Origin: Folioceros fuciformis | Taxonomy: Eukaryota | DNA: 64,000 nt | NCBI GenBank assembly: GCA_049999805.1 | Contig: JBNGIO010006060.1 | Span: 1 to 64,000 of the forward strand | Reading direction: 5' to 3' | In this document: positions 8,571 to 64,000 of the stretch, in pieces | How the letters are laid out: each line of letters starts with the position of its first letter | How positions within the stretch are numbered: the stretch's first letter is position 1 | Translations under genes and position numbers: made by a program | Notes under the pieces: generated by a model | Databases searched by the model: none | What the model saw: the letters and a program-made list of their open reading frames with translations, nothing else | Told to the model about the DNA's origin: nothing

Positions 8571-9199
8571 AAATTGTTGGGTATCATTGTCACCCTAATT
8601 GTTTGTCATGATTTTAGGTTTGGTAATCGATGGAGGTTAAAAAGTTGGACGTGCTTATGTTTCTAGTAGTGTGTCCAACTTTTTATGCCCAACCAATGGA
8701 GCTATAAATTGTCAAGGAAAGTTCTTAAAAATTTCTAGACATGTGTAGATGATATCATATGGCTCAAACCCTTGAATCTTACAACACTTTGAATAGCCCT
8801 GATGTGGAAGCATGTTATTCAAGTTTTTAGTATAATACTCTCATCAAGAAGAGGCTGTGGAAATTGTTTGACCTCCTAGAAGGTCGAGTGTTAGTAGGTT
8901 TTCAAACTTCAGAGAGCTTTTAATGAAAAGTATATGAAGATACAAGCTTATGTTGTAGTGAAGCGGTATGCCAAGCTTTCTCATATGGAGTATGGGCAAA
9001 TATTTGCCTAGTTGCGAACTTCAATTCCATACTTTGTATGTTGTCAAACAATAGTTGTAATTTTTTACCTTGAAATTTTATGTATGTTATTTTCTATTAT
9101 TGAAAAACAAATGAAAATGCTGAAATGCTTGTAGATTGCCCATTCATTGTGTAGAGCGTGTCGCCTAGTTTGTTTGATGTCACTGCTCTTAATTAGGAA

Positions 9200-13745: not shown

Positions 13746-14650
13746 TCAGTATATCCGGACGGGCTTTCCCATCGTGGTCTTGAGATAGAGCACCCTCACC
13801 TGGCAAAAGCAAGCTGAGATTCAGTACAAGAAGGGACTCGATGAAAAAGGGAGGAGGAAAGGAAGGGAGAATCCGACACTCACGTTTTGCCAGTTTTTCT
13901 TCAACAAGGAGACCAGGAAGTTGACGCTCAGCTGCACATTTTGGAAGATCTGCTTCTCTTCCATCTCGCAGTTTCCTATTGCCACCCCCATGCACAGCAC
14001 CTTCTTCAGCTGGAACTTCACCATGGACTTGGTCTCGATGACCTTGGACTCGAGAGACTCCTGGTGCGAGACGAGAGCCGGAAATTTGCCAGCCTTGTTC
14101 AAACCGGGGCCCAGTAGCCTAGGAATTTGCTTGATTACAGCCTCTGAAGCCAAAAACGCATGGTACTTCTTCGCCAGCTTCTTCACCAGCTTCTTGTTCT
14201 TATTGAGCTTCTTCAGGCTCTCCACATCCATATTGTCCAACCCGATCTTGACTGCCTGCGCGGCGAGAGGAAAAGGAAAAAACATGATGTACAAGGTGGC
14301 GAATCCCGTAATTGCTCTGAACAAGCTGATCAGAAGCTGGCGGCATCTTACCTACCTCCTCAATGTGCTGCGCGTCCCCGAGCATGCAGACTTTCATCTT
14401 AGGGCGGGGTTCATGCGGCAGCCGGACAGAGCCGCTGAACCGCTTATCCTTCTGCGGATCATAATTCTTCAACCCTATCTGCAGTTCCACTGTCTGCGAA
14501 AACTTCTTCGGCTTCTCCTTCACTTCAGCAAGAATCTGGGAGATGGTCTCCCTCACAACCTCAGCCTGCAGCTTACTGCAACATCCCGACAGCAATCCCC
14601 GTTACCGAAAGCGCGTCTACGACACGGAATCCAAATACCCCGTACCTCAT
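13746..14650 (-). CDS. RPL10A: 60S ribosomal protein L10a (uL1)
   Basis: Exons 14650-14646, 14575-14356, 14255-13884 and 13799-13746. Translation MSKLQ...[18 protein letters not shown]...[12 protein letters not shown]...[25 protein letters not shown]. Confidence 0.98.
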
Positions 14651-14909
14651 GGCTGATTTTAGTGACGAAGGTGCTGCCCGCTGTAAGTCTTCCCGCGCAA
14701 CACGTCGGACTCGTCGGAGCCTAAAAGAGTTAGTAGAGTGTCGTTACTCCCCGTTTACTCCTTCAGGTTCTAGGGCAAAGAAATGCTTACTTGAAAAGCA
14801 ACCTGACCTAACGACAGACGCCACGGTGGTTAGTCGTCATTTCACTTCTTACCACATGAAATTTTCAAAACAAGGTCAGGTCCGGTGACAGCGTAAGTCA
14901 TCCACTATT

Positions 14910-15239: not shown

Positions 15240-16778
15240 ATGGCGGGGATCAGGACGTGGAGTGTGCTGTTGCTCCTGCTTGCTTTCAGTGCTCTGACGC
15301 TGCAGGTTAGCGGTTCCATTTTCGGGGACAAGTCTACTGGGGAGCAGTTTCAGGAGGGAGCCGAGACCGCGGGTTCCAAGGTCGGGGAGACTGTGAAGGA
15401 GGGACAACACCAGGTTGAGGACACCGTCAACCTGGCGGAGGAGCACTCTAGGTCGTGGGGCGATTGGGCCAAAGAGAAGATCGGCACTTTCGCAGACACA
15501 GCTGCCAAGTGAGTGTTCTGATGTACATCCATCAGTCGTGCTCTTTCCAGTTTCCCGGGCTGCATGTTGACTGCTATTACTTGGGACTGCGCCGGTTCGC
15601 AGGGAGGCTGGAGAACAGTATGAAACGGCTGAAGAGGCTGCTGAGGCAGCGGGCACGAAGTCCTCCGAGACTGCCCAGAGTATCATTCAGGAGATCGCAG
15701 CCAAAGCCAAGGAGACCTTCAACAAGGGCAAGGAAAGCTTCAGCGGCAGAGCTTCCAGTTATACCTCGTTGCTCTTCTTTAAGCTTGGCCTTCATGCTTA
15801 TAATATGTTGTTTTAAGGCGGGTGCACGGGTAATTAATTGACACAACTTCCATGAACTTCGTAACAGGAAGCCCACCCAGGCCTAATCTATGCAACGAGG
15901 TGTTATTAATGCCTGTTTGCTTGATTGTGTGCGAGACAGGCTTAGAGTCACGGCAATACGTAGTCGAGGGACAGATGTAGTACTTTGTGGTGTGGGAGTA
16001 CAGTGGTGTCAATCCTGACCTGATGTCGGTGTGTTGGGCCCTGCCTTTGTTGAGAATGATTTCCGGGGTAGACGTAGGCCTAAGACGGGAATTTGGGCTT
16101 TTTGCAGCTTATTACAAGCATTGGGCTTCCGTGGTCAGAAAGAACTTTGATTCATTGAGGAAAGGTTGTACAGATACACACAATACATGACTAGTCGGCA
16201 GAACCGTCTTTCTCGCGATGGGAACGTGGTCTTAGCAGCAGCAGCAGCATAGTTAACCTCGTAGATGTCCACAGTCCAGTCTATTCTTTCCATCTCTTTG
16301 TATCTGATCCCGACCTCTGCTTTCTCTCGTAGGCGTCGAGCCAGAGATCCGGCAGGTGGTGGATGAGACCAAGGACACTGCCCAGGAGACTGGTCAGAAG
16401 ACCAAGGACACTGTCGAAGAGACTGCTCAAAAGACCAAGGACACTGCCCAGGAGTCAGTTAAGGAGAACAAGGACACCGCTCAGGAGTCAAAGGACGCTT
16501 CCCAGCAGAAGGCCGAGAAAGTGATTGGTAAGTCGAAGGAGACCTTGGAAGATACTGCTAGGGAGACTGTTGAGAAGGTTGGCGAACAGGGGAGGGCTAA
16601 GTCCGATGATGCCGTGGATGCTGCTAAGCGAGTCTGGGAAGAAGCGAAGGGCAAGTCCACTGAGGCTGCCGAAGAGGCCAGGACCAAGTACGAGGAGGCG
16701 AAGGAACGAGCTTCGCAGACCGCCCGTGAGGTTGGTGAGAAGGTGAAGCAAACCGTTCCCCCAAAGGAGGAGCTGTGA
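15240..16778 (+). CDS. ER-targeted group 3 LEA (LEA_4-like) protein
   Basis: Hydrophobic signal peptide, SWGDWAKEKI motif, 11-mer repeats TKDTAQETGQK/TKDTVEETAQK and C-terminal KEEL*. Exons 15240-15508, 15603 to about 15730-15760 (donor uncertain), and 16333-16778. Confidence 0.88.
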
Positions 16779-43934: not shown

Positions 43935-44580
43935 TGACCACCTCCCATGAGTTCTCGAGCCTTCAGGACCTCCAATCACCTCCTAGAAGTTCTCATGCCT
44001 AAGGACCGCCAATCACCTCCTAGTAGTTCTCCTACCATGAGGACCTATAATAATCTCAGAGCAATTCTCATGCCTTGAGGACCTTCAAGCACCTCCTAGC
44101 ACTTCTCATGCCATGAAGACCTTCATTCACCTTCTAGCAATTCTTATGGTTTGAGGACCTCTAATCACCTCCTAGCAGTTCTCAGCCCTAAGGACCTCCA
44201 ATCATCTCCTCCTATCATCTCCTTGTAGTTCTCATGCCTTGAGTACCTCCAATCGCCTCCATAGCAGCTATTATGGCCTGATGACCTCCAATCACCTCCG
44301 AGCAAGTCTCATCCCCTGAGGACCTCCCATCACCTCCTAGCAAGTCTCATCCCCTAAGGACCTCCAATCACCTCCCAGCAAGTCTCATCCTCTGAGGGCC
44401 TCCAATCACCTCCAAGCAGGTCTCCTCCCTTGAGGGCCTCCTATCACCTCCTCGCAAGTTTCATCCCATGAGGACCTCTAATCACCTCCTAACAAGTCTC
44501 ATCCCTTGAGGACCTCCAATCACCTTCTAGCAGTTCTCATGCCATGATGGGCTTCAATCACCTCCTTGCAGTTCTCACGC
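43935..44580. repeat. 38-bp minisatellite, about 17 degenerate copies
   Basis: Unit GAGGACCTCCAATCACCTCCTAGCAAGTCTCATCCCCT. The period is not a multiple of 3. Confidence 0.93.
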
Positions 44581-44727: not shown

Positions 44728-47700
44728 TCACTGCTCTGGACGCCAGTATCGACTCTTCTTCACAGTCCACTCAAGGATATTGGTTGTTGGATGTGGACGT
44801 TTCTTTCTCCCTAGAGTTGTATTGGGATGTGTCTCTATTCTCAAAGCAGCACTCTCTTTAGTTACTACATGAGGACTTGTATGATCTCTTGCTTCCAACC
44901 TAGCCATCCCCGTAGATGTATGTGGATGTTTCCCCTGCCCTGGTGATGCATCCCTCTTGTTGCTGAGTATTGAAGGTCTTGAAATGTCCGTTGCTTTCAA
45001 CGTAGCCATTCCCATAGCTTGTCTCTCCTTTCTAGAAACCATCCCCATAGCTTGTCTGTCCTTTCTAGAAATATCCCTTTGTTTACTCATAAGTTTGGAA
45101 GGAATAGAAACAATTGTTGTTTTGAATCTAGGCACCCCCAAAGTTGAATTGCTGTGTTTCTTCTTCCCAAAAGAACTCTCCTTTGGACTCACTCTCCCAA
45201 GGGCCGGAGTATCTACTACATTCACTCTCAAAGGTGCTGGAGTATCTGCTGCATTCTTCTTTTGGCTCACTCTCAGAGGGGCCGGAGCATTTGCTGCATT
45301 CTTCTTTGAAATCCCTCTCATAGGAGCTAGAGTATGTGCTACATTCTTCCTTGGAATCCCTCTCAAAGAGGCCAGAGTATCTGTTGCATTCTTCATTGGA
45401 CTTAATCTCAGAGGAGCTGGAGTACCTGTTGCATTCTTCTTTGCACTCACTCTCAGAGGGGCTGGAGTATTTGCTGCATTCTTCTTTGAACTCCCTCTCA
45501 GAGGAGCTGGAGTATCTGCTGCATTCTTCTTTGGATTCACTCTTCGAGGGGCTAGAGTATCTGCTGCATTCTTCTTTGGACTCACTCTCCGAGGGGCTGG
45601 AGTATTTGTTGCAATCTTCTTTGGACTCACACTGTGAGGGGCTGGAGTATTTGGTACAATCTTCTTGGAACTCCCTCTTACAGGGGCTGGAGTATTTGTT
45701 GCAGTCTTCTTCGAACTCCCTCTCACAGGGGTTGGAGTATTTGCTGCATTCTTCTTCGGACTCACTCGCAGAGAGGCTGGAGTATTTGCTGCATTCTTCT
45801 TCAAACTCACTCGCAGAGGGGTTGGAGTAGTTGCTGCATTCTTTTTTAGACTCACTCTCAAAGGCATTAGACAAGTTGCTGCATTCTTCTTTGGACTCCG
45901 TCTCAAAGGGGCTGGAGCATTTGCTGCTTTGAACCTAGCCACACCATCCTCTCTCATACGACGGTTATCACCTTGTCCAAGCTTCATTACCTTTACGGCT
46001 TGGCTTCCCAAAAACACAATGTCTTGCATTCCTCTTTGTCGCATGGCAATGGGCAATGGAGCATGTTGTTGACGTTGAAGTGTATCATAAATATTTGCAG
46101 CAATGGCCAAAGTCATTGTTGGATCTTGAGTATACTCCAATTGTTGACATTGTGCAGCATATTCGTCATTCATACAAGGCAAGATGATACTTTTGGAGTA
46201 AATCACTTGCTTATCTGTTGCTTTCTCTTTACCTTCACTATCACGCTTTCTAGATTTCTCTGCTTCCAAACCAACTCTATAGTTAGATGAGATCCATAAA
46301 TTTCACACTAATAGTTCTCATCAATAACTTCATGGATGCAAGCAACCATACCTTTATTTTTCTTGACCTTTGCAACATTCCCATCATTCGATAGATGGGC
46401 TCTTTTCAAAGCCTTCTTTTGTTCAGGACGCGCATGTAAAGCTGCAACTTTCCAATATGTTTGTCAAGAATTTTCTGGAGTGATACAATGAAATTGGCTC
46501 AAAAGCTACACAAGTATCAATCACTTACCATTGAGATTCAAGTTTGATTTACTCAAGATAGAAGCCACATCATATTCACTGATGTGATAATTTGTGATTG
46601 CTTTAGCTCCATTGACTTCTATGGAGACTATATCATATGCTCTGAAATCATGATAACATTGATTAAACATGACAAACTTACAAATTATGAAATAGAATTA
46701 GACAATAGCACTCTTGCATACATAATGTCACGCACATAAAATATCATGTAAACTTGCATAGAGGACATTAATATAAACAGGAAATAAATACCTTGCCGCC
46801 TCTTCTTCAGTATCATGGAAACCTCGGGTCAAAGTACCATCCCTAGAAATAATAGATACAATATATCATAGATATCAATACTCCATACTATTTTACCAAA
46901 AATATGTAATGTCATAAAAAATGTCTTCTTACCTCTTGGCAGCTGGATTTTGAATCTTATATTCAGCCTTCCATTTGCTTCTTTGCGCTTCAAATCTTAT
47001 ACCAAAAAAGTTGGAATCTAAACTTCGTTTTGCCATGCATCTTGACCACTCAAGAAATTCATTTTTGGTCATCTGCTCAATCTGCATGCATCAAATGTAT
47101 GAGTTAGGTAACTAAATTTCTTCAAATCAAACCATTTAAGGAAGATAAGGAATAATTTAGAGCAATATGTTACAGTAGAGAAAAAGAAACGAATAGAAGA
47201 AAGTAAAGAGAAGTTCACTGTTGTTTTATCTCATGATATATTTGTTCCTATATATATGATAGTTACAAAAAAACAGAAACAAACCTCCTGGATACAGTCA
47301 TGATATGAACTCAATTTAAAGTTTGTTGGTGCTGATGATCCTCGAAACTTTAGAGACCCTCTATCATAATGTCTGCACATTCCAAATGTGTGTGACAGGA
47401 TCACAAATGAACTACTAACTTTCAATGGATACCTAAAATACTATTTAACAATTGTGCGAACATGTACCTCAGCCATTAGCAAAAGCAATGCAAAGACTAC
47501 TTAAGATTAGACTTAGTGATTGCCACACATTTTTATGACCAGCAACAAAGTTGATAGTTACAATTTCCTCTCTTGGATTAGATGCATTACTTCCAATCCA
47601 ACACGTACCTTGCAGCTTCAATCTCGTTGTGGCATGAACCTGAATAAAACACATCCAAAATATGCTATTAGAATTGTCATGCTTGTCAACAAGACTCTAC

Positions 47701-50391
47701 ATCAGACCATATATTATTACTTGGTTATATATATAACATATGAATACTATTTTTTTTGTTGTATAGATATTTTGAAGATGAGCCCATAGAATTTAGCGTA
47801 TGAATGAAGGCACAGAAGCCTACCGAGATATTGCTGTTTCCCATTTAGCCTTTTGGGTGTCTCCCTGAAAAATTTGCGAAAGAAGAGCAAAAGGTTAGCC
47901 AGTTAGTTACGACTGGTAGTCTGAAACTATGCTTGAACTTGGGACCATGTAGTTTACAAACCATATGTGTGCCTCCCATCTGTTGGTGCGACTGTAGCAA
48001 TTCACTCCCTGAAACTGTGACTTACGAGATACCATCTTCCTTGATTGGGGTTGCAAGTCCTTTGGTGGGCAGCATTTGCCTTTGGCAAGGGCTTCCTTGT
48101 TGTCTTGCAACCAGGTTCTCTCCCTGATCGCATACCTTAGGTAGAAAGACAGATTTCCTGTCTTCTCCGCTGCTGCTAGGGGCGTTCCCGGCAGTCCGTT
48201 GAACAGATCAGCAGGAAGCCTGTTCCACTTAGATCGTGGACCTTTGCCTCGGCATGCGCTGCTACTCGGTGAAAGCGGCACTTCGATAAGCGAGGTGTGA
48301 GCTGGACGAACAGCTGGTAAAGGCCGGATATCATTGGCTTTCGGATCACTTGACTGTGACACCACCACATCGACATAGATAACCTGTAAAGCACGCGGAT
48401 ATTAAAATGTGACTCGACTAACTGTATTTCGAACCTCTGTCAGACTTGAATCAAACAGCAAAAACTGAGGATGATCAAACTCTGAAAGCTTGCCATGATT
48501 CTCAACCTCGACGAAACAAGAAAGTTATGATTGACAAACATTGAAGACAGTCACATCTTAGCGCCCTCACTTACAGCTAGAGGCTCAGGGTCATGTCATG
48601 TAAAGAAACTCATCATTTCCACGACAGAATATCTCAAGATACGTCAATTCTACATGCACCTACAGAGCTGCACAAGCTTGACAAGAGCGGAGCTGACTTA
48701 CATTCGATGATGAACTTTCCTGATCTTGTTCCAGAAGGTAGGGCCCTGTAGACGAGCTTGGATCCTACACATGTCGTTGAACAACACATATAAGAACATG
48801 GGTATGGGAAGTGTGAGATTTCCGTCAAGTGGAAACGGAGCACACCAGGCAGCAAGCTTAATGCTGTGCACGTGTATACAAATCCATCCTGGTGTCGCGA
48901 AAAACACTGGGCTATATATACATTGAATTGAAGAATTGCAGCTGGAAAGTCTCAATTGAATTTGTCCCAGAAAATCTGGTTACATACCCGTGAGTTGTGC
49001 AACTGGATTTCTCTGATGGGATACCGCTGCATCCCCACCTCTCCAACAGAGGATTGAGACGTGGCCTCTGAACTTGCGGCAGGGAATTCATACACCGTGT
49101 TCCCAGATCGGCGGCACCCGGATCGAGACCTCTTATTTGCCCATATGTGCGCAGTGTCATCTTCACGGTACGGCATAGCTTTCCCGTGAAGACCAAGGCG
49201 AATTGACGAGGACGAAGCATCGTCGTCGGATTGTCCCGCCTGCACAAGTAGTTATCAGTCAAGAAGATTCAGATTGGACGAACCTGAACTGAGTCATCCA
49301 TAAGCACTGAGACGTCAACGCCTGCAATATTTTATTTTAAGCTTAAGACAGCAGTCATGATGCAAGCTCCCGAGCTAGTAGTGAAATGCATGGTCCTGAC
49401 AGCTCCATGAACTTAGGGCAGTAGAAATGCATGGTCATGAAGTTAGGCCATTTCACGACTGACTGTTAAAAGCAAGCTAAAGTGCGCTGCAAATCACAAA
49501 TTAGCACGTGAGCCACCAGACCTTAACAACGTCATTCTGCGGACGCTTCCACGGGCCAGCGCCAGCGGCTGGTAGAGATCCTCCTCCAAGGGGCTTTGGA
49601 GCTGTCGTTGCAGGGGATCCGGGGCTAGTTCGGCTGAGCATCGGGGCACGATAATCTTCTCTCCTCACTGCGCGCAGTTTGGCCAGGGCAAACGATCAGC
49701 AGAGAATCATTAGCAGGCCTTTGCAGGGCAAAGCAATCCAAGATCGGCCTGAACTAGGCAGGAGGAAGCAGATACTGCAGGCTTTACCTCGTGCGGAAGC
49801 TGGAGGGTGGGGATCCGCCCCGGGGTGAACCGCTGGTACTCGACGTGGCCCAGATGTGGGTGGAGGGTGCTCGGCAGGAAGGGGGAGTTGTGGAATGGAG
49901 AGTGGAGCGAGAGGATTTTGATGGGAATCTGCTGCTGGCGCCCTCAGATCTCTGCGTTCTGGTGGAGTGACCACAAGCGGGGAAAAAGGAGGGAGGGGTA
50001 CAGATGGCACGGGCACAGACTCGGGCGCTGATGTCGGCTCCGGGGACGGCTGGCGCAGCAAAAGGCGAGCACGCTCTCGCGCCCGATCTTTCGTCATATC
50101 ACACAAGGAAGCTTGAGGTTGTGGGGGAAGTGCTTTTGTAATATGTTTACCTTGGGGATGCTTCCTTGGCGTCCAGACTTGAAGGCGGCTCCAAGGTCGG
50201 GCGCGCATGATGGCCACTCCCTGCCTCCGTCGAGCTTCCCATGCCGCAATGCGGCGATCGTTTTCGTCCGGCTGCAAATTCAAGTCCACTGCGCTATGCA
50301 GCCGGCGTAGAGCATCCGCAACAGGACCGGCTGTAACCGCCGCCGCTGCCGTGGGTCTCACTGTCGGCTGCTGCTTCCTGATTCGAGCCAT
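44728..50391 (-). CDS. Divergent double-AP2 (euAP2-like) transcription factor, copy 1, with SPKK-repeat C-terminal tail
   Basis: Exons 48383-47962, 47864-47824, 47639-47609, 47372-47285, 47081-46933, 46842-46792, 46641-46529 and 46441-46352 splice in frame. R1 is SQFQGVNCYSRTNRWEAHIWETPKRLNGKQQYLGSCHNEIEAARHYDRGSLKFRG..TNF; the linker is MTKNEFLEWSR; R2 is FFGIRFEAQRSKWKAEY...GFHDTEEEAARAYDIVSIEVNGAKAITNY. Joining the last exon (ending 44728) needs the GAG acceptor at about 46275. Probable first exon 50391-49788 carries a DLNxxP motif; the 5' exons are not fully resolved. Confidence 0.82.
45170..45930 (-). repeat. Coding 45-bp (15-aa) tandem repeat TPAPLRVSPKKNAAx, about 16 units
   Basis: Visible in the DNA and in ORF 44728-46269. 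Confidence 0.93.
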
Positions 50392-52921
50392 CTTCCCTTA
50401 CTGATATTGGGAGCTGCGCAGTCAGGTCAACACTAATGTTAGCAAAGGCAATTTGTTCAGGCTGTCTTCCCCTGATAACTCCACTCACGACCTCCCAGCA
50501 GGAAAGGCACGGAATTCGAGGCTACCTGACGCTCCCAAGCGAGTGCGAACAGATCCGGAAAGCTGGAGCGCGACCACGGGAGTGAAAGAAGCCTGATGCA
50601 ATAGATAAGATCAAGGGAGCAATGAGCTGCTTGCTATGGCTCGAAACAGAAGGCTGGGAGTAGAACTTCAGGACCTCACAGTTTCATCAGCGAGCTGTGT
50701 AGGCGAATTCCTTACCGCCGCAGAGCGCAGTTGGCCGAGGAATGCTGGGTGTTCGAGCAGGATGTGGAAGCTTTAAGCAGTGCGTCGCAGACCGGTGATG
50801 GAGGAGCTCGGGCCCGCTGAGCTCGGGGGAGCTCAACGGCAGAGCTTCAGAGTGACGGGGGAGCGGGAAGGAGAGACAGAAGGGCCTTCAAGGTCCCAAA
50901 TGAGAGGAGAGAGGAGCGAGGAGAGAGAGAGAGAGTCGTGCTGGGAGAAAGAATGTACGAAATTCACCCAGCGGTTAAATGCCACACTAAGGCTCATATC
51001 ACAAACAAGCCAGTTAAGTTAATCTAGCGATGTCCAGTACCCACAGCTACGACACGTTCGGGCAGCGGGCAGGCCAATGACGCAGTTTTCCGGTACTGCG
51101 CCCTCCAGGGGAGTGGAGACGGTTAGAGGAAGGGCCCGCCTGTCCGAACCGGGACAATGGGCCCTTAAATCCTCTGCGTGATCATGGCGCAGTATCTGGA
51201 CACTGCGTCATCAAACTGCGACCGGCGACGGGGCAGGCTCAGAACGGGACGGGCGGGACAGGCGGGGACGGGAAGGACACCCCTGGGAAACGGGCACAAA
51301 CAGGATTTCCTCCATGTTCAACGGCACGGGACAGAGATGGCATCACTATGGATGCAGGGCATATTCCGAGCCCAGGCTCCTCAGCGTAATGATGTAGGCA
51401 CCCCTCAGCAACATCATGTGCAAGGGATGCAGCCAGTTCATCACCGGCCAGCCACCGCAGTGGTTTGCTTATGACGGCAAGCCACGATGCGCATTATCTG
51501 GAGTCCAGTCCGTGCGCTGGCCTCAAGACAGACGAACGCAGCTGCAACTGGTGAGAAATCCTTCCCAGGTTCACGAAACTGGCTGGTGAGCAGCTTTCCC
51601 AGGCTCTAGCATGCAAACTGGCGTACTGCATTGGTATGTACGTTCATACATGGATAGAGAAACCCCAAGGGTGCCTTCCCATTCCTTCAAGTCCCGAATC
51701 GCAGTCATCCATTCATGTCAGGCCTCGTCCTCGAGTTGCTTCAAGTGACAACATTGCTGCCGGCTATGCGAGGTTAGATTCCGATGTGGTTCCAAGGTTT
51801 TCACTCGTTGGATAAAGTTGGGACGGAACCAAGCGATGCTGAGCAGAGGCTCGGGCTCCCACGTAAGAATAGAAATGATCAAGCACTTGAGCCGGCTAAG
51901 AGCAGTCACATCTCCTAGCTGCTTAATTTTCAATGACAAGGCGAGTGGCTGTAGGCAGAGCCTCGCGCTGCTCAGTGCTATACGCCGCGTGAAGATGCAA
52001 GCGGCAGGTTTGTATCTTGCAGGGGACGGCTGCATTCATTAACCTCGTACACGGTTTCTAGCGCTCGGCCACCGCGGAAGGATGAGTTAAAGAAAAAGGA
52101 TGAGCTTGAAGGCGTTGATGACCGTACAGTGTACACTCTACCCAGGAGTCCCGTCCTGGTCGAGTTGCGTGCATGACCCTGGACCCTAAAGCTGAATCGG
52201 AACAGGCCCGTCGCTTACCACTCCTTGCCCAGCTGTAGCTGAAGGAGTGGACTTCAGAAGCGGCCGATAGCTGAGCTTAACACCTTGTTGGCAGGCTCGA
52301 CTGCCCACGAAAACGGGCACTTCTTCTAGCTGTTTGGAGAGATTGTCGCCAGCGAACGCCTAAATGCTGCCCTACAACCTGGCATAGCTGCAGACTCATG
52401 ACAGTGCTTGTCGATCGCGAAAATGCACACATGCTAGGATCCAGACATTTGCAACTCGATCTGTAATTCCAGATGGAGTTTATCATTTGTCCGCGCTAAA
52501 GAACTCTGCATAAGCAGACGGCAAGTTTGCAGAGTGCGATCCCACATTGACACTTGCAATGCGAGTCAGGAGTCCGAGCGCAAAAATCAATATCCACTGG
52601 AACCTGTGGAGCGTACGCTCCACAGCTTCCAACGAGCCCGAGCCCAAACCATTTTACAAGGTTGGGAAATCCTGCAGCTAAACTTGTTTCCAGCCCGGAA
52701 CTGGAATTGTGCATTCGGCAAAGCTGCACTCTCTAACGCGAGCCTGCATGTGGGAGACAGACCCACGCGCCATGATCGTGATTAGGGAAAAGGCAAGCCC
52801 GAACAATGCGTTGGAGCCAGCAGACTGTGGAGGCATTCATGCCAAGCTCAAACATCCACCCAAACATGAAAATGAAAACAGTTTCAACGGAAGGCAGCAA
52901 TATAAATCATACAATCATGAT

Positions 52922-53815
52922 CTATATGCATCGTAGATCTGGAAAACGCGTTGCAGCTGGCAGCATGCATACCTAGCCATGGAAGCAAGGTCGTGGTTTG
53001 TACAGATATGGAAAAAAGCCAAGTACGCACCTTCAGCAGGCGAAGAAGAAGAGGAAGAAGAAGCTCCCCCGGAAGTAGAAGAAGAATCTCCTCCAGAAGA
53101 AGAAGAGGGAGAAGTATTCCCTTCAGAAGAAGACGAAGAGGAAGAAGAATCTTCTCGAGCCTCATCAGATCCTTCCTCGGAGGTGGTAGGCGGGGCGTCC
53201 GGAGCCGGATCCTCAGCAGGTGGAGGTGCAAGAGCTGGAGCCTGTGGTACAAAACTTACAAGCAGAAGTCAAATGAGCAGCCCGCTGGGATACAAAGAGG
53301 CAGCCAGCTTCGGAACGGGTACTGCTGATGGAGTCTGCCAGGTAGCCAAGGGAGACCGTAGCCCTTACCTCTGCCAGGCTCATCGTTGTAAAAAACACTG
53401 CGACTTCGTCGGGTGTAAGGACGTTACGAAAGTACGTCCGGTATGCTATCTCCATCGGGTCGGGGTGCTCGACCTGAATCCTTGCTCGCTTCTCGGAGGC
53501 TGCCCGGATACGCCACCGAGTGGTGGCGTCATGAACGGCCATTGCAGCATCAGACTGGGCCTGCAGCTCCAGCCGCGTCCGCGAGGATCCTTCTTTCTGA
53601 TCCCGCATCGGAATGAGCAGAGGCGCCGCCGCTTCCTTGCTCTTGACCTCTTGCTTCAGCAAGGGCACTGCGGCGGTGGCGCCCAGTAATTCTGTTGGAC
53701 ATCCACTTGCTCCCAGAAGAGGGTGCGGTTCCCGTGCACGTGGACGTCGTAGAGTTGTTCGGTTGGGTGCATCCTTCCTCTCCATATCCTTCTCCGCCTT
53801 CAGGCTTTTGCCCAT
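52922..53815 (-). CDS. Unknown protein X1 (basic N-terminal exon plus Ser-rich exon), paralog of X2
   Basis: Exon 53815-53369 (149 codons, GTAAGG donor) and exon 53241-53031 (APALAPPP...EDSSSSSSSSEG, phase 1). The terminal exon is uncertain; candidate 52938-52922. Confidence 0.5.
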
Positions 53816-54649
53816 CCTGCAAACAAGCCAAGGTGATGAGCAAGCAGCGTGTCCACAGAGAGCTCGATCTGGCTCATACACAGCTAAGTCAGACCCTACA
53901 CAAGTAACATCCTTGGAACTCACAATGCAAACAGCAGGAGCATGGCAAGCGCCAAGGTTCAGCAAAGATGGAGTGTTCAACACAGAGCTACGGGCCGATT
54001 GCAGATTCGAAGTGCAGAAGGATATGGGGTTGCGAAGGAGGCACTTGCAAACTCCAAGATACCCGTTACCGGAGGTGGCGCTTGAGCTTGGAAAGCACTG
54101 GCGCAGCGAACGCCGTAGCAACTCCCCCTGTGCGGCCGAGCTCCCGTCCCGCCCCGTCCCGTCGCGGAGGTTTCTCCCACCAGCTCTCCCCTCCCTTTCG
54201 TCCCTCTGGGCAGCCCGCGTCCCCTTACGGAAGACAGAGACTGCTCCCCACCCGGGCTTCACCTTCCTTCACCCACATCGCCGGCCGCTAGTCATGTGTT
54301 TGCATTATGCGTATAATAAAAATACTTATATATAAGTAGATGATATAGCTCGTTATATGATCCGTTCAATCTGGGTAACCTAATGAGGAAGTAGGTTAGG
54401 CTAACACATATTAGTTATTTTAATTTTAATATATATTCATGTAAGCATATACTTTGCACATGACTATTGAGTGAAGCACTCGAACTCTCACATCTCTAAT
54501 GGTCAAAATATAATTAAAAATAATTAAAAATTTATAGGTTATTAAGAAAAATAAGAAACCATGGTTTGTGTCTTGACGCAACTACAACTACAAAAACAAT
54601 TGTATGTAATATACTCAACGTACATAGCGTTCTGCATTGTGGGTTATAT

Positions 54650-55350
54650 ATGCCCATGCTACATGGTCTGAGATGATTGGAGATTTGCTCTAGGTCACGT
54701 TATCATTGCACATGGCCAAGTTACATGGTTTGAGAGATTATCGTAGATTGCACGTGGTCATATTAAGTGGTTTGCGATGATCGTAGATTGCACATGGCCA
54801 TGTTACGTAGTCTCCAATGATCGTAGATTGCACATAGCCCTATTATGCATGGTTTGCGAGATTATCGTAGATTGCAGGTGGTCATATTACATGGTGTGCG
54901 ATGATCGTAGATTGCACATGGCCATGTTACGTAGCCTCCAATGATTGTAGATTGCACATAGCCATGTTACGTGGTCTGCGATGGTCGTAGATTGCACATA
55001 GCCATGTTACGTGGTTTGCGATGGTCGTAGATTGCACATAGCCATGTTACGTGGTTTGCGATGATCCTAGATTGCACATAGCCATGTTATGTGGTCTGCG
55101 ATGATCGTTGATTGCACATAGCCATGTTACGTGATTTGCGATGATCGTAGATTGCACATAGCCATGTTACGTGNNNNNNNNNNTTACGTGATTTGCGATG
55201 ATCGTAGATTGCACATAGCCATGTTACGTGGTTTGCAATGTTCGTAGATTGCACCCGGTCATGTTACGTGGTCTGGTCTGCGATGATTGTAGATTGCATG
55301 TGGCCATGTTATGTAGTTTGTGATGATTGTAAATTGTACATAGTCATATT
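54650..55350. repeat. 40-bp minisatellite, about 17 copies visible, with an assembly gap inside
   Basis: Unit GCCATGTTACGTGGTYTGCGATGATCGTAGATTGCACATA. N run at 55174-55183. Confidence 0.95.
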
Positions 55351-57714
55351 TCGACGTCAACTTCCCATACTACCTAATATGTTTGAACGGAGAACGGAGA
55401 TTCATCAAAACCACGTGTCACATAGCTTTGTGGATGTTCAGCGATTAAAGCTGCACATAGCTTATAGGGTTTCAATGTCGAAGTTACGAACAACTCAATT
55501 TCAGGGTTTAGGGCAAGCTGCATATGTTTTGCACTTGACACACTCACAAAAGATGTCCAAAAAGAGATGTACTACTATGCCTATATGTCCTTGCTAGAAC
55601 CACATGCTCTTACATATATGGTGTCCGACAAAGAGGTTTGTACATACACAAGGCCTTGGTCTATACTTCAGTGGTTAAAAATAATATTTATCTGATTAAA
55701 TATTCCATACGGAGCGAGTAAATATCCATTCTGGCAGTGCAACTTGGACAGCAGTGCATATATGTATGTGCAGGCCGGCTCTCTGCTTTGCATCACATCC
55801 GTTTCTTGGACTAGCCCTGGGTCGGCGCCCGGGCTGTTCTGTACCTATGTGGGGAAAATATCTTGCCCCAGTGCATACAGCGGGCAGAGGGCAGAGGGCA
55901 GAGGGCAGCGGGCAGCGGGAATCCAATGAGTCAGTTTTCTTACACGGCTTTCCAGCGTACAATCGACGCAGCTCGAGGAGGGACCCGGGCTGTCAGGAGC
56001 GACACACTGCGGGCCCTGGGGCCCTTAACGTACCGCATGATTATCCTCCTGCCAGGAAGACAGGAGGGGAAAGGGACCATGGCGGGAAGGGACGGCCCAG
56101 CACGGGATGGGATGGGCCTGGGAACTGGCGACATCTGCAAGGCCCAAGAGGCCACGGGTACTGGGAGCCCTCCACGCGACGCAGCAGCAGCTGCTCAACA
56201 GCGTAATGCAGTAAACCACCCCTCAACGCTTCCTGCACATCCTGGGATTCCAGGGGGGTTTGTTCACTCTACCAAGCCACCGTCCGTCCCGTTCCAGGGT
56301 TCCGGCTCTGCACTGGCTACCGGCCTCGGGACAGGCGCACGAAGCCGCACCCGCACCTGGTAAGTGGCGTTTTCAGACTCTTCCATGCAGACGGGAGTGC
56401 CCACAGTCTTCAGCGTTCAAGCCATCTCCGAATTCCAGCCATCTCACACCACTTGGCACGATCTCAACGAACGCAACCATGCGAACACATCTCGGCTGGC
56501 GATGCGAGCTCACATCCGGATGTGCAGTATGAACAGTACATACTGTTACCAAGGTTTTCAACTGTGGGAGGATGTCGGCGAGGAATCAAGCGACGTCGCC
56601 TGAAAACCGTTGTCCGGCTCCCGCGTGAGAGTACCATTAATTACGCACGTGAGTGAGGCCATCACTTCCCACACCCGCTTAACTTTTGAAAGGAGAGTGA
56701 GTGGCTGTAAACAGAGCCCCGCGCTGCTGGGACCTGTACACCGGTTAAAGAGCCGGGCCTGGCTGGGGCCAGCACGGACACCCGCACCGCTCAAATCTCG
56801 CTGTACTTTCTGGCCTGGAGCCCCGCTCGAGTTGAGGAATGGATGAGCTTGAAGGCGGGCCAGGAGCCCCGCATTGTACTTCTTTGCAGTTGGAGTTGGA
56901 CCCGGGCAAAAGCTACATCAGGGCAAGCTCTGCGATGCCGTCTTCTGTCCCGACATCGGCCCCTGTCAGCGGTCTGGTGCTCTGGTAGACATAAGCAGCG
57001 GCCTTCACTTCCAACTCGCAACTTGCCACGGCACGTCAGGAGTATTGTACTTTCTGCCGAGGTGCGAGATGACCCACCGTGCCCCTCACTCTTGGGGATA
57101 GACTGGCTGAGTTTACCCGACGCGTGTCCCTGAGTCCAGGTCATAAATTACACCTGTGTGGAATCTGTCGGGCTGCAGCGGCCAGGGGTCAGGGGCATGG
57201 CCGTATGGAGGGTCGACCGCGCTGAGCTTTCATTAATTTGCTCTGATTCTTAAGACAGTCTCGCAGTGTGGACGATGTACGTCATTCGGGCTGCAAGTGG
57301 AACTGCGAAGTCATGTTGCCGGTTTACCCAGCTAGCGGGTGCTTATTGCTGTGAAGAGTTCCTGGAAGAGTGGGAGCTCGACTGTGGAAGAGGGGGACGC
57401 AAGGATACTGTGCATTACATTAGCTAGAGTCATCAAAAAACGAAGTTTGATTGAGCGCTGTCAACCCGCACCAGCACTTGTAAGTCATGCCTTAAACAAA
57501 CACTAGTTTTGCAAAATCGCGAGCCGTTCGTTCCTTGTTCCAGCTCGGGGACCCGAGACTGGAATTGCACACTCCACATTACTGCCTAAAGCGAGCCTGC
57601 GTGCGGGAGGGAGACACAGGGATCATGATTAGAGATATACAACAATCCAGCATACACCCCTTCAGACAGAGGCCGCAGACAGTGGAGCCACTCATACCAA
57701 GCTCACAAATACAA

Positions 57715-58589
57715 TCAGCCACTGGATCCACCTAAACGTCTTCAAAAAAGTTTCCAAGCTTATCATCACGACCACATGGCCTTGAAAGCGTGCAGCATCA
57801 ACCATACCAGTTAGCCATGGAAGCAAGCTCAGGGATGGACCAGTCATGGAAACAGCCTAAAGAACGAACCTTCAGAAGAAGACGAAGAGGAGCTTTCCTG
57901 TCCTCGTCTAGGTTCATGAGAGCCTCCCTGATTGGTCGTGGCCAGGGTGGTCGGGGCCGGAAGTTGACGGTGAGGACGGGGACGAGCCGGATCCTGCACA
58001 ACAACAGAGGAAATGGAGAAATCAGTGCCGTGTCGAAGAAGCGGCCAGCCACAGTACCGGTACTGGTACTGCTGGTGCTGTCCGGAAACTAGCCAGGTAG
58101 CCTTACCTGTGCTGCATCATTTTGGGACTCGCCCAACCTCCGTAGAAAAACCCAGGCAACACTGGCGTGGACGGCATTACTCGTCTGGTATTCAGGAATC
58201 CCGTTGGAGTGCACTGACGTGGTGTGGTCCCCGGCCTGAAGGAGCAGCCTAGCGCGCCTGGAATTGCTAGCCCAATTTCTCCAAAAAGATTCCATCTCAT
58301 CAACGTCTGTTGGCTCATAAGCCACGACCTCCAGCTGCGGGGCCCGGGGCTGGGGCTGGGGCTGGGACTGGGGCTGGGACTGGGACTGGGACTGGGGCTG
58401 CGGCTGCGGCTGCGACGGCACCGGTACCGGCACCGGTACCGGTGCTTCCGCCTGCTGCTGAATGATCAGACTCAGAACTCTTGTCGTTACCTCTTCAAGT
58501 GACAGGGCCTCCGCGACGTGATCCACTGGACTCTGTGGGGACGGCGGGGGAGCCACAGGAGGATGGCTACGGCGTGGTCGTCGTGCCAT
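57715..58589 (-). CDS. Unknown protein X2 (Pro/Gln-rich, Ser-rich), paralog of X1
   Basis: Exon 58589-58107 (161 codons, GTAAGG donor), exon 57993-57870 (DPARP...GQESSSSSSSE, phase 1) and candidate terminal exon 57731-57715. Intron phases match X1, and flanking DNA about 56000-59000 is homologous to about 51150-54200. Confidence 0.5.
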
Positions 58590-60062
58590 CGCTGTTACGT
58601 AGCCTGAGAAACAGGCCGAGGTCAAGAGCTTTACAACACTACCGATCGAGCTCGATCCTGTGCAAACACAAAATACAGACTCTACACAGCATGCTCACTC
58701 GTGCATAACATCCTTGGAACTGGCACTACAAGCAGCAAGATGGCATGTATCAGCGCTCAGCAAGTTTGAAGTAAGAGGAATGTGCAAAGGAGAGGCCATA
58801 TTCAAAGGCGCGTGCAGGTGAAGCTGGGTAAGAAGCTGCAGGGCGCTGGCAAACAGCAAGCCACCCTTCACCTGCAGTTGGTGGCGCTTGCAAGCAAAAG
58901 CAAAATCCAGGGACTCGGTAGCAGCGCCCTCTGCACGCTCCAGCTGCCTCCGCGAACTTGTGTCGTGTCTTCGTTCGCTCCCGGTAACAGCCCTCCTGTT
59001 ATCGAATACCTCTCCCGTCCTCTCAGTCTCTGGACAACCCTGAGAAGTTTTCAGAGAGTTTTCTTTTTCTACGCAAAACTTAATTTATGTGCGTTATGTC
59101 AACGATATCTGGCTTACATCAAGCACACCTATATTTCTAATGTAGTATAAGGCGATTTTATTTGCCTTTAAATACCCATGCTTTCATTAGTTTTCCAAGG
59201 TTGTTTTTTTCTTTAAAAATTAAGTGCTTACGAGATCCATGACATTAAGAGCTAGTAGGCTCTAGAAACTAAGTAGATAGGTTTTTCAATCTCTTTTGCA
59301 GTAAAGTATGTATTCAATTAAATTTAATACCAATTATTAGAACAAATATACTTCAGAAAAACAAGCTTATGCATAAAGTAAGTTTATGTAAAAACAGTAC
59401 ATATGTCCAATTAATATAACCACAATGAATTCATATCAAAATATTTATAAGTAATGAGATAATTAAACACATAACAAGAATAACTTATGGTGTTAGAAGT
59501 ATATATACTTAGATTTATCTTATTTATTATATATTATCTTATATTTGATATTATCTTATATTTGTAATTATTATATATTTCTTGTAAGTGTTTGCTTGGG
59601 TTATGTTAGGTCGGGATGGATGTAGTGGAGTGGTATTTTATTGATTAGTAATTTTCAAATACATAAACTTGATCATTAAATAGTAACATAACTCAATACA
59701 AGTAGCTAATGTTGTTATAAATTGGCAGACCAAGCAAATGGGTTATGGGTTATATTTTGGAAGCCAATGATTGCCCCTTTCATAGGACTTAAGTTGAAGA
59801 ATGCATGAATAAATAAGAAAATCTTATAGATATTTGAGTTATATGATTAATAGAAAACTATGAAATAAGTCACAATCATTACAATCCAAGAGTTTGAACT
59901 CAAGATCCTTGCTATGCTGCATAAGTTTCAACCATCATATCAATCGCAACACTTAAAGTATGTAAAAATTATAAATATATGGAATGTATAAAGTATTTCA
60001 AATGTGAATGGGAACTAGCACAAGAACAAAGAGAGTTTAATTAGTAGGATGCCAAAGAGAGT

Positions 60063-63000
60063 TTAGTTAGCAGGATGCCAATATCTGCTCTTCTTTGCAG
60101 CCCATTCAGGGAGATCGATTGATGTAGCTGGATGTTTCTTCCTCCCAAGAATTTCGGTTGCCTCACTCTTTTTGGAAAGACTTGCAATACATGTTCCATG
60201 GAAGCTTGCAATCAAATTTGCACGAGGGTCATCACTACCTCCAAGTTTCAATACCTTTGTAGATAGAGGTTGCGCTCCTGTTAACTGTAATGTCATAACC
60301 TGGGGCAAATTAAGCTGTCTATGCAGAGCAGTTTCGAAAGCATTTGCAGCAATGGCCAGTGTCAAAGTTGGGTCGAATTCTCCAGCAACAAGTTGCCGAT
60401 TGTGTGCAATAGTCAACTCATAATTAGTAATCTGCCCCTCTTGCCTTGAAGCTCTCTCTTGAACACTTGTTCCCAGTTCTTTTCCCTTATCAGTGTGCCT
60501 CCTATGTCCTCCTCCTGTGAGAGGAAAGAAAGTTGGATGAGAGATTCATAGAATAACTACAATCAATACAGAAGATTGATGTCAACAAGCAAATATTACC
60601 TGGACGACTCTGGACGATTGCCTTATTTGCAGCTTTTGTCAGACGAGTTGGTGTCGGCCTTTGTTCTTGTTCTTGACGATGTAAAGCTAGTCATTTCAAT
60701 TTCCAAATGAAGAAAACAAGTTTATCAGAATGGATAGTTCCTTCCCCAACCCACATCTTCACATGGGCAATTCAAAAGCAATGTGTTTGAATGACCCACC
60801 ATGAAAGTTCAATTTCGATTCACTCTGGATGGAAGCAATATTGTATTCTTTGATGTCATAATTGGTGATGGCATCGGCTCCACTGACTTCAACAGATACT
60901 ATGTCGTATGCTCTTCAATCATAGTTCAGTGTAAGTTCAGGAAACTAGAAATTGGAAAGAGGCTCTTCAATCATAGTCTAGTGTAAGTTCAAGAAACTAG
61001 AAATTGGAAAGAGGCTCTTCAATCATAGTTCGGTGTAAGTTCAGGAAACTAGAAATTGGAAAGGGGCTCTTCAATCATAGTTTAGTGTAAGTTCAAGAAA
61101 CTAGAAATTGGAAAGAGGCTCTTCAATCATAGTTCGGTGTAAGTTCAGGAAACTAGAAATTGGAAAGGGGCTCTTCAATCATAGTTCAGTGTAAGTTCAA
61201 GAAACTAGAAATTGGAAAGAGGCTCTTCAATCATAGTTCAGTGTAAGTTCAAGAAACTAGAAATTGGAAAGAGGAACTTACGAAGATCAACATACACAAT
61301 TTATTAGCATAACAACATACTGTAAACCTACTCAAATGACCATGACAGACATATTGGGCAGCTCCTTCAATCATAGTTCACTGTAAGTTCAGGAAACTAG
61401 AAATTGGGAAGAGGAACTGACGAAGATAAACATACACAATTTATTAGCATAGCAACATACTGGAAAACCTACTCAAATGACCATGACAGACATACCGGGC
61501 AGCCTCTTCTTCAGTATCATGGAAGCCTCGATTCAGAGTGCCATCCCTAGAAATAAAACATAAAAACGATAAATAATAGTATTATTTATAAAATGATCAA
61601 AGAAGAACAGTGAAGTTAGAAGACTTCATGTTCTTACTTTTTGGCAACAGGATTCTGGATCTTATACTCAGCCTTCCACTTGTTTCTGAATGCATCGAAT
61701 CTTGTGCCAAAAAATTGTGAAGCCAAACAACGTCTTGCCATGCATCGAGACCATTCCAGAAATTGGTCTTTGCTCATTAGCTCCATCTTAAGGACATGGA
61801 ATATAGATGATAAGTCACTAGTGATAACAAATGTCTTCAAAACTTTGAGCTTGAACACACATGATGTGTAGGTTCAAGGGGAGTGTCAAGCTAAACCTTA
61901 TCCTCAATAACAAAATCTAGAAAGCTACAGCAAACCTCTTTGATGCAATCGTTGTAGGAGCATGAGTTGAAATTTATGGGAGCTTCGGGTCCTCGGAATT
62001 TCAGAGATCCTCTGTCGTAATGTCTGCATATTTTCAAGTAATAATTTCTATTTTAGTAACCACCACCAAAAACAAAAGGTGTACTTACTTGAACTAGTTC
62101 TCACCTTGCAGCTTCCAGCTCGCTGTAACATGAACCTGTACAGTGCATTCCAAACAAGTGTCAAAAGCAGCAGGTAATGAAAGACTGAAGATAGATGGTG
62201 CGAAAGTACTATCTGCGTATACAGTGAGGCAAGAAAGCTTACCAAGATATTGTTGTTTTCCATTTTGCTTTTTCGGTGTCTCCCTAAAAAATCACAAGAA
62301 AACAGAAAAAGACAAAGGTCACTTCAGCGCTTCCCTGTTACAACTTCAGCTATATGCAGGGCCCCTGACAAACCATGAATTGGTGACAAGCGTGAAGGTA
62401 GCCTTTAGCTCACGTACCATATGTGTGCCTCCCATCTGTTGGTGCGACGGTAGAAATTGACGCCCTGAAATTGTGACTTACGGGATTCCATCTTCCTGGA
62501 CTTGGGTTGCATGTCTTTTGGTGGGCAGCATTGCCCTTGAGCAAGTGCCACCTGGTTGTCTTGCAGCCAGGTTCTCTCCATGATGGCGTACCTTAAGTAA
62601 AACGACAGAGGTCCTGTCCTCTCCGCTGCTGCTAGTGTCGTCCCCGGCAGGCCGTTGAAAAGGTCAGCCGGAAGCCTGTCCCATGAAGACTGATCATTTC
62701 CGCCAGGGCTCTCCAGTGAAGTAGCGGCCACGGGAGGCGCGTTGAGGTCGACAATTGGCGTGATCACCTCAGGGGACAGATCACGCCGAGGTGGAGACCG
62801 ATCATAGGTTTCTGGAGCAGCTGCCGGTGCCACCTCCTGGTCCACATACCGAGCCTGAAAAGCACACAGTACAAGCATGTGAAGAAACTGCATCCATGCG
62901 CGCATATGACAATCTGCATCCTTGCGTACAGTTGCACTCTGCCGAACTTTGATCAAACAGCGCAAAACCAGGAAGTATTGAGGGATCGCTTGCCAGATCG

Positions 63001-63732
63001 TGAAATTGAGGAAAACGAGTAATTGACAAACAACAAAATGACAGTCACATTGCACACTGGATCATTATGTCGACGCGATGCCCTGAAGTGCAGCTACTTG
63101 ACGTGCACAACCCCATGAGTTCCACGACAGAGTATGTCATATACCTGAATTCTACATGCAGCTATATAATACAAAGGTGCACAAGCTTGAGAAGAGTGGT
63201 GATACACTCACATTTGAAGATGAAGAGCTTTCTTGGTGTTGTCCAACGTCAGGCCCTGTGGACGAGCTTGGAGCCTACAGACATCGTCGAGGAGCATAAG
63301 AACATCGCAACTGCATCGAGATGCATCGCATCGGGCACCCAGGCAGACAATTCAAGCTTGACGACGCACACACATTCATACAAGTCTTCTATCACCGGGG
63401 TGGAGAACAAGACTGGGCTATGGAGACATTTAGGAATTCCGTCCCAGAAAGTTCGAGATGCATCTTGGCTCACGTACCGGTGGCTTGTTCAGGTCGATTG
63501 CTCTCATGGGCTGGTTCCCCTCGAATCCAGCAGAGTATCCGGACTCGGACAATGAAGCATATGCAGACGAAGCTCTCCTTCTTGGTATTCGCGAAGTTGA
63601 GCGCACCCGATGGTGAGCCCATCGAGTTGGACTCCATACTTTCCCACGGCCATCTGCATGGTTGGGAATAGCACTCGCGTGAAGATGAATGGGTGCTAAT
63701 GCGGTTGTAGGCCTGTCCTTGGCGGCGCCCGC
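60063..63732 (-). CDS. Divergent double-AP2 (euAP2-like) transcription factor, copy 2 (5' end outside the window)
   Basis: Exons 62854-62418, 62283-62243, 62135-62105, 62023-61936, 61786-61638, 61546-61496, 60912-60800, 60686-60600 and 60514-60063 are all in frame. R1 is [49 protein letters not shown]; R2 includes GFHDTEEEAARAYDIVSVEVSG. DLNxPP motifs lie upstream. AP2-region exon sizes equal those of copy 1 (41, 31, 88, 149, 51, 113 nt). Confidence 0.85.
60910..61500. repeat. Intronic 52-bp tandem repeat (7 copies) plus a duplication of about 139 bp covering the whole original intron
   Basis: GCTCTTCAATCATAGTTCAGTGTAAGTTCAGGAAACTAGAAATTGGAAAGAG starts at 60910, 60962, 61014, 61066, 61118, 61170 and 61222. 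61222-61360 matches 61361-61500. Confidence 0.95.
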
Positions 63733-64000
63733 CTGCACAAGGTCTCAGAAAATCAATCGTGGTGCTGCGCTCAGATTGGAGTGGAACTGAAACTGACCAG
63801 GCTTAAAAATAGCTCAGGCGTGAAAGCACGCATTACTTTAGGCTAAGCAGAAAAAGCAGTCATGAATAGCAACTTCCTTCAATTTCCCGTCATGACAGAT
63901 CGAAGAAAAAGCATGGTCATGACGTTAGCCATTTCACGACAGACATGTCCGAGCTTTCGCGAATAGACAGATCAGACGTGTGCTGCAAATACCCAAATCA

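Follow-up and report, generated by a model that had tools for sequence, protein, structure and literature searches.

The euAP2 transcription factors, which include APETALA2, TOE and SMZ/SNZ as well as proteins of Selaginella and Equisetum, carry two AP2 repeats joined by a linker, a YxRTxRWExHIW signature in repeat 1 and a DLNxxP motif. One survey describes them as highly conserved and, outside flowering plants, as single-copy in ferns and gymnosperms. It ascribes functional change in the family to regulation, and reports that searches of Physcomitrella, OneKP and Phytozome retrieved no euAP2 beyond vascular plants (PMC8136505). A second source likewise found no euAP2 in alga, moss or fern (PMC5029118). 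Here we describe a locus at positions 44728-64000 of contig JBNGIO010006060.1 (assembly GCA_049999805.1), of which the first 64,000 nucleotides were analysed (hereafter the window). The window represents nuclear sequence from a land plant whose introns are short. The locus carries two genes that share the above euAP2 features, AP2-1 and AP2-2, and two further genes, X1 and X2, all on the minus strand in the order AP2-1, X1, X2, AP2-2. We consider it reasonably probable that a remodelled euAP2-type transcription factor gene was duplicated locally long ago, and that its two copies enclose a pair of copies of an orphan neighbour, likewise duplicated locally.

AP2-2 (44728-50391, minus strand) comprises 13 coding exons and encodes 1193 residues. 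Its first seven exons lie at 50391-49788, 49667-49522, 49239-48988, 48764-48702, 48383-47962, 47864-47824 and 47639-47609, and exons 8-13 at 47372-47285, 47081-46933, 46842-46792, 46641-46529, 46441-46352 and 46259-44728. AP2-1 (60063-63732, minus strand) has 11 coding exons in the window, at 63732-63478, 63274-63212, 62854-62418, 62283-62243, 62135-62105, 62023-61936, 61786-61638, 61546-61496, 60912-60800, 60686-60600 and 60514-60063, which encode 588 residues with the N-terminus missing. The start of this gene lies past the window edge, since the last 268 nt of the window (63733-64000, minus strand) align with AP2-2 intron 2 and form the homologous intron. All 22 modelled introns are GT..AG (10 of 10 in AP2-1 and 12 of 12 in AP2-2). 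Each gene has a single open frame, and the alternative frames of the two spliced AP2 models contain 20-66 stops each. Ten exon pairs are equal or nearly equal in size (AP2-1/AP2-2: 255/252, 63/63, 437/422, 41/41, 31/31, 88/88, 149/149, 51/51, 113/113 and 87/90 nt). An earlier note on this DNA had proposed four co-oriented genes in this order, AP2 genes with common exon sizes and three common blocks outside the AP2 repeats, and X1 and X2 in mutually homologous blocks of about 3 kb. The spliced models agree with the proposed arrangement, the three blocks are present in both AP2 genes, and the X blocks are colinear, as described below. All four genes are real.

A profile built from 122 double-AP2 regions scored AP2-1 at 132.5 bits (positions 17-194) and AP2-2 at 129.9 bits (positions 17-189), revealing in both proteins two AP2 repeats joined by a conserved linker; X1 and X2 scored below 0. 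When single exons were searched with Pfam PF00847, one of nine pieces matched (E 0.044). The best match of the AP2 pair among 1.84 billion representatives was a euAP2 protein, with an identity to euAP2 proteins of 42-43%, compared with 84-87% between Selaginella and Equisetum euAP2. In a FastTree phylogeny of 30 rows (12 of 54 euAP2-type and 16 of 68 other, mostly algal, sequences, with no ANT or WRI), the pair is placed outside the land-plant euAP2 clade (12 rows) and sister to it with a support of 0.87, on a stem of 1.27 changes per site with tips of 0.14 and 0.16. The pair is probably euAP2-derived, with euAP2 providing its best BLAST matches and, in this tree, its sister group. We take its exon run of 41-31-88-149-51-113 nt to resemble a euAP2 run of 26-31-88-146-45-104 nt. 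In AtAP2, the counterpart of the 51-nt exon is exon 6, of 45 nt (PMC5029118).

Selection on the two copies was assessed by pairwise comparison of AP2-1 with AP2-2, using a Nei-Gojobori script. The ratio of nonsynonymous to synonymous substitution rates (dN/dS) is 0.11 for the core (dS ~1.0), 0.10 for repeat 1, 0.09 for repeat 2 and 0.14 for a 67-residue block described below, while the termini give 0.55-1.0. Given the long stem, the short tips and the low ratio in the core, the rapid change of the AP2 proteins is old and their present core is conserved. We infer that the ancestral gene left the ordinary euAP2 line, changed fast, then stabilised, and was then duplicated.

The two repeats have diverged in different ways. 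Repeat 1 of AP2-1 (61950-62482, minus strand, lower bound approximate) is spread over four exons and carries a euAP2-like signature, reading FYRRT in AP2-1 and CYSRT in AP2-2, as compared with FYRRT in euAP2, HHCRT in algal proteins and RHRWT in WRI1. Both genes have a 5-residue insertion in this repeat, where euAP2 has none. ANT/WRI proteins (WRI1, PDB: 7wq5) share the insertion site and the two-domain layout, but the euANT1 insertion is 10 residues long, whereas that of the AP2 pair has another sequence and stands beside a signature unlike RHRWT. Repeat 2 (60828-61711 in AP2-1, minus strand, three exons) is identical between the copies at 56 of 70 residues. Its beta-sheet residues are remodelled, both genes having FFG, KWKAEY and RGFH in place of the YRGV, GRWEAR and YLG of euAP2, while the AARAYD helix is retained. 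According to PMC9401623, WRI1 reads bases through H72, E79, W83 and Q98 of repeat 1 and H175, E181 and R183 of repeat 2, and the R183A mutation abolishes DNA binding. The counterparts of the first four are Y, E, W and Q, both in euAP2 and in the AP2 pair. Those of the last three are A, K and E in both AP2-1 and AP2-2, a charge swap at two key positions. The linker is also shortened, at the segment that holds F161 and R163 in WRI1.

Double-AP2 proteins with one repeat off the standard form have been described for TOE2, SMZ/SNZ and SMOS1-like basalANT (PMC5029118, PMC6361745), the basalANT genes having incomplete repeats (PMC6361745). These proteins lose exons or residues, whereas repeat 2 of the AP2 pair is full length, even slightly longer, and under strong purifying selection. 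Further differences from euAP2 are an altered basic KKSRR motif, the new 67-residue block, two new C-terminal motifs, the tandem copies and, possibly, a non-vascular host. The peptide of the miR172 site (AAASS-F) was not seen on reading the two translations (for AP2-1, the part in the window, and for both genes the coding sequence without the untranslated regions (UTRs)). Lycophyte euAP2 is likewise reported to lack the site (PMC8136505). The pair would work like a euAP2-type repressor, yet it is not to be filed as ordinary euAP2, because of the repeat-1 insertion, the altered repeat-2 core and the missing miR172 peptide. The literature consulted, mostly open full text represented by titles and abstract openings, gave no account of a comparably divergent euAP2 pair; PMC10855264, PMC6947164 and PMC3804621 offered general background only.

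The 67-residue block directly precedes repeat 1 (62483-62683 in AP2-1 and 48027-48227 in AP2-2, both minus strand) and is identical at 55 of 67 positions. It is probably helical, as its predicted model consists of short helices, although of low confidence (mean predicted local distance difference test (pLDDT) 53). Among 1.84 billion representatives the block had eight matches, seven of which were AP2 repeats and none of which covered profile positions 1-36. No relative was found among longer proteins (0 of 1113 candidates, which is weak evidence) or in metagenome contigs (0 of 312 pattern matches). The best Atlas score was 0.80, the PDB gave no sequence match, and the best fold match, obtained with the low-confidence model, had a Z of 2.9. 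A resemblance of its first residues to an F-box was dropped, as Pfam gave no match at E 10.

Short motifs outside the repeats are also shared. The DLNxxP motif, an EAR repressor motif (PMC8136505), occurs twice in AP2-1 (63478-63495 and 62732-62749, minus strand) and once in AP2-2 (50269-50286, minus strand, first coding exon), at differing places and not at the very start of AP2-2. Towards the C-terminus both proteins carry DPTxTLAIAAN (46093-46125 in AP2-2 and about 60342-60374 in AP2-1, minus strand) and end in EWxxKKSRYWxP followed by the stop codon (44728-44772 and 60063-60107, respectively, minus strand); the terminal motifs align over 38 residues with 45% identity (E 2.6e-6). In both proteins YWxP stands two residues before the stop, which to us recalls the Groucho-binding WRPW tails, though this likeness is our assumption. 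The last exon of AP2-2 additionally contains an in-frame 45-bp array (45222-45927, minus strand, 15.7 copies) that AP2-1 lacks. Its 15-residue unit is basic and rich in S-x-K-K, and we presume a likeness to the SPKK repeats of histone H1. A second minus frame (45128-45934, 268 residues) and plus frames (44885-45830) likewise remain open through the array, as expected for a repeat period divisible by three.

Evidence for expression comes from a single public sequencing run, the one listed as containing the searched stretch and not itself recorded as RNA. It lacks independent replication and was mapped onto 45950-54650 only. Joints fell at the modelled bases for 7 of the 12 AP2-2 introns and all 3 X2 introns, invariably as CT..AC on the plus strand, from which it follows that the run represents spliced RNA. 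Two stretches, 47114-47695 and 50315-52060, had no cover in this run. AP2-1 transcript was recognised by its cross-mapping on AP2-2, where one contig showed 38 differences over a shared exon, the number implied by the alignment of the two genes (85.8% over 268 nt). Comparison by eye of loose contig ends with the window located AP2-1 exons 4, 7 and 11, giving two AP2-1 junctions. A 1703-nt contig extends 1360 letters past the mapped edge, long enough to include the AP2-2 repeat tail and stop codon if colinear. AP2-1, AP2-2 and X2 are spliced and transcribed, and their transcripts co-occur in the one run. A further contig, at 49607-50226, connects pieces of the first two AP2-2 exons at ends that are not splice sites; it may come from the missing 5' portion of AP2-1 or from a different paralogue.

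The two X genes lie in blocks at 55903-59063 (X1) and 51059-54246 (X2), both on the minus strand, the X1 block comprising promoter and 5' UTR, gene and some 1.7 kb of downstream sequence. The blocks are colinear over about 3.2 kb (about 59060-55900 against 54250-51060). Seven of eight matched segments reach z 7-23 against shuffles, and the eighth, the main coding exon, reaches z 1.6. The predicted X1 coding sequence (57586-58589, minus strand; exons 58589-58107, 57993-57870 and 57596-57586) encodes 205 residues. The X2 transcript (52271-54059, minus strand) has a 5' UTR exon at about 54059-53924, coding exons at 53815-53369, 53241-53031 and 52743-52733 for 222 residues, and a 3' UTR reaching at least 52271. 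Both genes have three coding exons with identical intron phases and a stop three codons into exon 3. Their non-coding sequence differs at 34-45% of aligned sites and their main coding exon at 51-60%. Over 107 in-frame codons the proportions of nonsynonymous (pN) and synonymous (pS) differences are 0.45 and 0.47 (ratio interval 0.73-1.27), and all three codon positions differ about equally often (53, 47 and 46); a protein-guided alignment gives a dN/dS of 0.70. An open frame was retained in 14 of 5000 and 1 of 5000 shuffles and in 85 of 2000 lineages simulated under neutrality. X1 and X2 are true paralogues that have kept frame, introns and stop but not amino acids. They are best interpreted as copies of a genuine orphan gene whose sequence is weakly constrained, and positive selection is also possible. 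The product would be small and mostly disordered with a helical middle, residues 77-148 of X2 being modelled as three helices (pLDDT 74-90 from residue 81 on).

Searches for relatives of X found 0 of 260 metagenome pattern matches, an Atlas score of 0.88 to unnamed viral clusters, which is under the lead threshold, and no sequence match in the PDB; the best Foldseek E was 1.0, and the best VIA Z was 4.8, to generic helices. For X as for the 67-residue block, the lineage may simply be unsampled. Complex prediction of the block with the X2 helices gave no answer (score 0.00), and folding of the conserved spacer at 51650-52150 was not better than that of shuffles (z 0.74). Several details of the X copies were also noted. 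Their start codons are non-homologous and 13 nt apart (58589-58604 and 53815-53816), 41 aligned codons of the DNA alignment are mutually out of frame, and opposite the donor site of the X2 5' UTR intron X1 has GC, with a different GT available within a 15-nt insertion. At the end of the X2 block, upstream of AP2-2, lies a 26-nt inverted repeat (51077-51211; 85% complementary, 83-nt spacer).

Several results weigh against reading the locus as separate duplicates of a remodelled euAP2-type gene and of an orphan neighbour. The tree is a FastTree reconstruction of only 30 rows with neither ANT nor WRI among them, and its long stem is open to misplacement. The mapping of WRI1 residues depends on two pairwise alignments and crosses a gapped region. 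No joint was seen in the RNA run for the five AP2-2 introns that lie between 48701 and 47082 and include the repeat-1 junctions. X1 exon 1 aligned with AP2-2 exon 1 at a score of 78, the highest among 58 non-self control segments (shuffle p 0.014). The start and finish of X exon 2 also resemble those of the 63-nt AP2 exon. Finally, the dS of 0.74 for the X pair, against ~0.65-1.5 for the AP2 pair, indicates similar ages, as a shared unit would also give.

Such a shared unit would consist of an X and an AP2 gene repeated together, as X0-AP2-1 with X0 past the window, X1 with its AP2 gene deleted, and X2-AP2-2, X being an unrelated partner or co-regulated gene. We regard this as unlikely, though it accounts for several features of the locus. 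Homology between X1 and X2 continues for 1.7 kb beyond the stop codon and ends sharply some 670 nt short of the AP2-2 start codon, the order AP2-X-X-AP2 is impossible from one tandem duplication, the two pairs are similarly diverged, and AP2-1, AP2-2 and X2 appear in the same RNA run. However, no trace of an AP2 gene can be seen past the X1 block, and a stable partnership poorly accounts for X amino acids that drift as fast as synonymous sites against a conserved AP2 surface.

The resemblances between X and AP2 exons would be explained if X1 and X2 were old 5' truncations of an AP2 gene, ending before the conserved block and acting as dominant-negative or decoy regulators, a reading to which we give little credence. 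X exon 2 has in common with the 63-nt AP2 exon an entry in phase 0 and a final QESSSS-like run, and the first 5 nt of X exon 3 equal those of AP2-1 exon 3. X1 and AP2-2 both start with MAR and both contain RARLLL (shuffle p 0.010-0.019). Against this, the X2 protein gave shuffle p values of 0.17-0.55 with AP2, hhalign returned a probability of 0.6%, and the protein matches are rich in Pro and Ser. In the DNA, the best z between X and the AP2-2 5' region was 3.2 among 108 comparisons, versus z 7-23 for most X1/X2 segments. The introns and the exon that flank the supposedly shared exon reached only z -0.6 to 1.2, where the AP2-1/AP2-2 and X1/X2 homologies are plain. A 13-letter pattern made from the exon starts, allowing one mismatch, matched both AP2 exons and neither X exon. 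X1 and X2 carry no AP2 repeat, 67-residue block, DLNxxP or C-terminal motif, leaving nothing evident to compete with. Derivation of X from AP2 genes is thus only hinted at (p 0.01-0.18, in low-complexity sequence). Truncated antagonists of the microProtein type are a known concept and, like the X genes, can be short genes beside a transcription factor gene; unlike them, X has no conserved domain in common with its AP2 neighbours. The earlier note had taken X1 and X2 for AP2 relatives and the locus for a possible regulator/antagonist module. The first proposal is left with these hints, and the second would lack sequence support even if X were AP2-derived, because X has no conserved AP2 element. 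We favour instead that X stands next to AP2-2 because X and its downstream spacer were duplicated, and not because it antagonises AP2.

As to function, the AP2 proteins would most likely be EAR-motif nuclear repressors with a new DNA specificity, judging from their motifs. Repeat 1 may still contact DNA in the euAP2 manner and would be the main DNA-reading part, while repeat 2 would no longer recognise the standard motif and could confer a new specificity or else make contact with a protein. The putatively helical block beside repeat 1 could act as a partner-binding or domain-packing module, and the basic repeat tail added in AP2-2 could supply non-specific DNA contact. Recruitment of TOPLESS-type co-repressors by DLNxxP is established in other plants, and by analogy DLNxxP may serve the same purpose here. 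Alternatively, the proteins could be chromatin-associated or scaffold proteins without specific DNA binding, kept for the block, repeat 2 and the basic tail of AP2-2. The loss of the repeat-2 readers, together with the shortened F161/R163 segment and the fact that a single repeat-2 change abolishes binding in WRI1, speaks for this alternative. All four repeat-1 readers are nevertheless retained in both copies, under a dN/dS of 0.10 in that repeat, and we find a complete loss of specific binding improbable.

Intron 8 of AP2-1 (60913-61495, minus strand, 583 nt) is expanded by a duplication of its first 140 nt and by a 52-bp minisatellite (60910-61274) that lies in the middle of the second AP2 repeat. 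Each unit of this array copies the 3' splice site, an approximately eightfold multiplication. Among the 34 AG sites listed in the intron, only the last (60912) yields an open frame through exon 9. As judged from these sites, use of an upstream acceptor would truncate AP2-1 within repeat 2, a possible built-in source of short isoforms. The earlier note had placed minisatellites after AP2-1 and between X1 and X2. The second is indeed there, as a 40-bp array (54705-55341) with a 10-N assembly gap at 55174-55183, whereas the first is the array within intron 8. A further, 38-bp minisatellite lies just downstream of AP2-2 (43939-44577). Rfam gave no match in 43000-64000.

That the genes are decaying duplicates or a dispersed transposon-borne unit is very improbable, since the X dN/dS near 1, the truncating acceptors of AP2-1 intron 8 and the several minisatellites are set against the AP2 core dN/dS of 0.11, spliced transcripts and open frames, which largely refute decay for the AP2 pair, and against the absence of terminal repeats at the X block ends or in the 25 longest inverted pairs, and of any transposon family among the 12 open reading frame (ORF) pieces of the cluster. 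Of the checks that the earlier note had named, these points answer those for decay and for transposon termini. Its view of the AP2 pair is supported in that the two genes are divergent, transcribed, without a close relative in the searches run, and neither decaying nor ordinary euAP2 orthologues, but these results do not establish the four-gene system that it proposed. The label "fast-evolving" applies today to X1, X2 and the AP2 termini, but not to the AP2 core, whose acceleration falls on the stem before the split. A bolder combination has only a slim chance of being right, namely that a non-vascular plant kept a rewired euAP2 with new DNA specificity and a helical domain, in X-AP2 units in which X, possibly an old 5' offshoot of AP2, tunes or opposes AP2 in reproductive tissue.

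Elsewhere the window contains genes for a Copia-type reverse transcriptase, SufE, ribosomal protein L10a, an F-box/CW/SNF2 protein and a neurobeachin-type WD40 protein. A tree of the SufE domain (41 rows, made up of the window and 40 of the 120 hits listed, with no named lycophyte or hornwort among them) placed the window apart from ferns and seed plants with 80/89 support, in a polytomy with Sphagnum, liverworts and Zygnematophyceae. The host would accordingly be a seedless plant, somewhat more likely than not a bryophyte and otherwise perhaps a lycophyte. The reverse transcriptase is a fragment with an N gap (312-1675, plus strand), and the GC-rich coiled-coil ORFs that follow at 2330-3874 (plus strand) resemble a portion of a second retroelement. 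The 5' end of the L10a gene recurs at a distance of 6 kb in two to three degenerate copies in tandem, with an identity of about 80% (8094-8660, plus strand, against 14500-14760). A protein with 11-residue repeats is encoded at 16308-16778 (plus strand); it has sub-threshold Pfam matches only, and we presume it to be LEA-like.

The X genes offer a clean example of frame and splicing being retained while the main coding exon outpaces the introns in divergence. In the AP2 pair, the protein itself was rewired and then held under selection, in contrast with the regulation-based change ascribed to euAP2. The remodelling of repeat 2 under selection thus provides a natural test of how specificity changes in tandem AP2 repeats. 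If the host is a bryophyte, the pair would represent a euAP2 lineage where none has been reported, earlier BLAST surveys may have missed such genes through their divergence, and the confinement of euAP2 to vascular plants would need revising.

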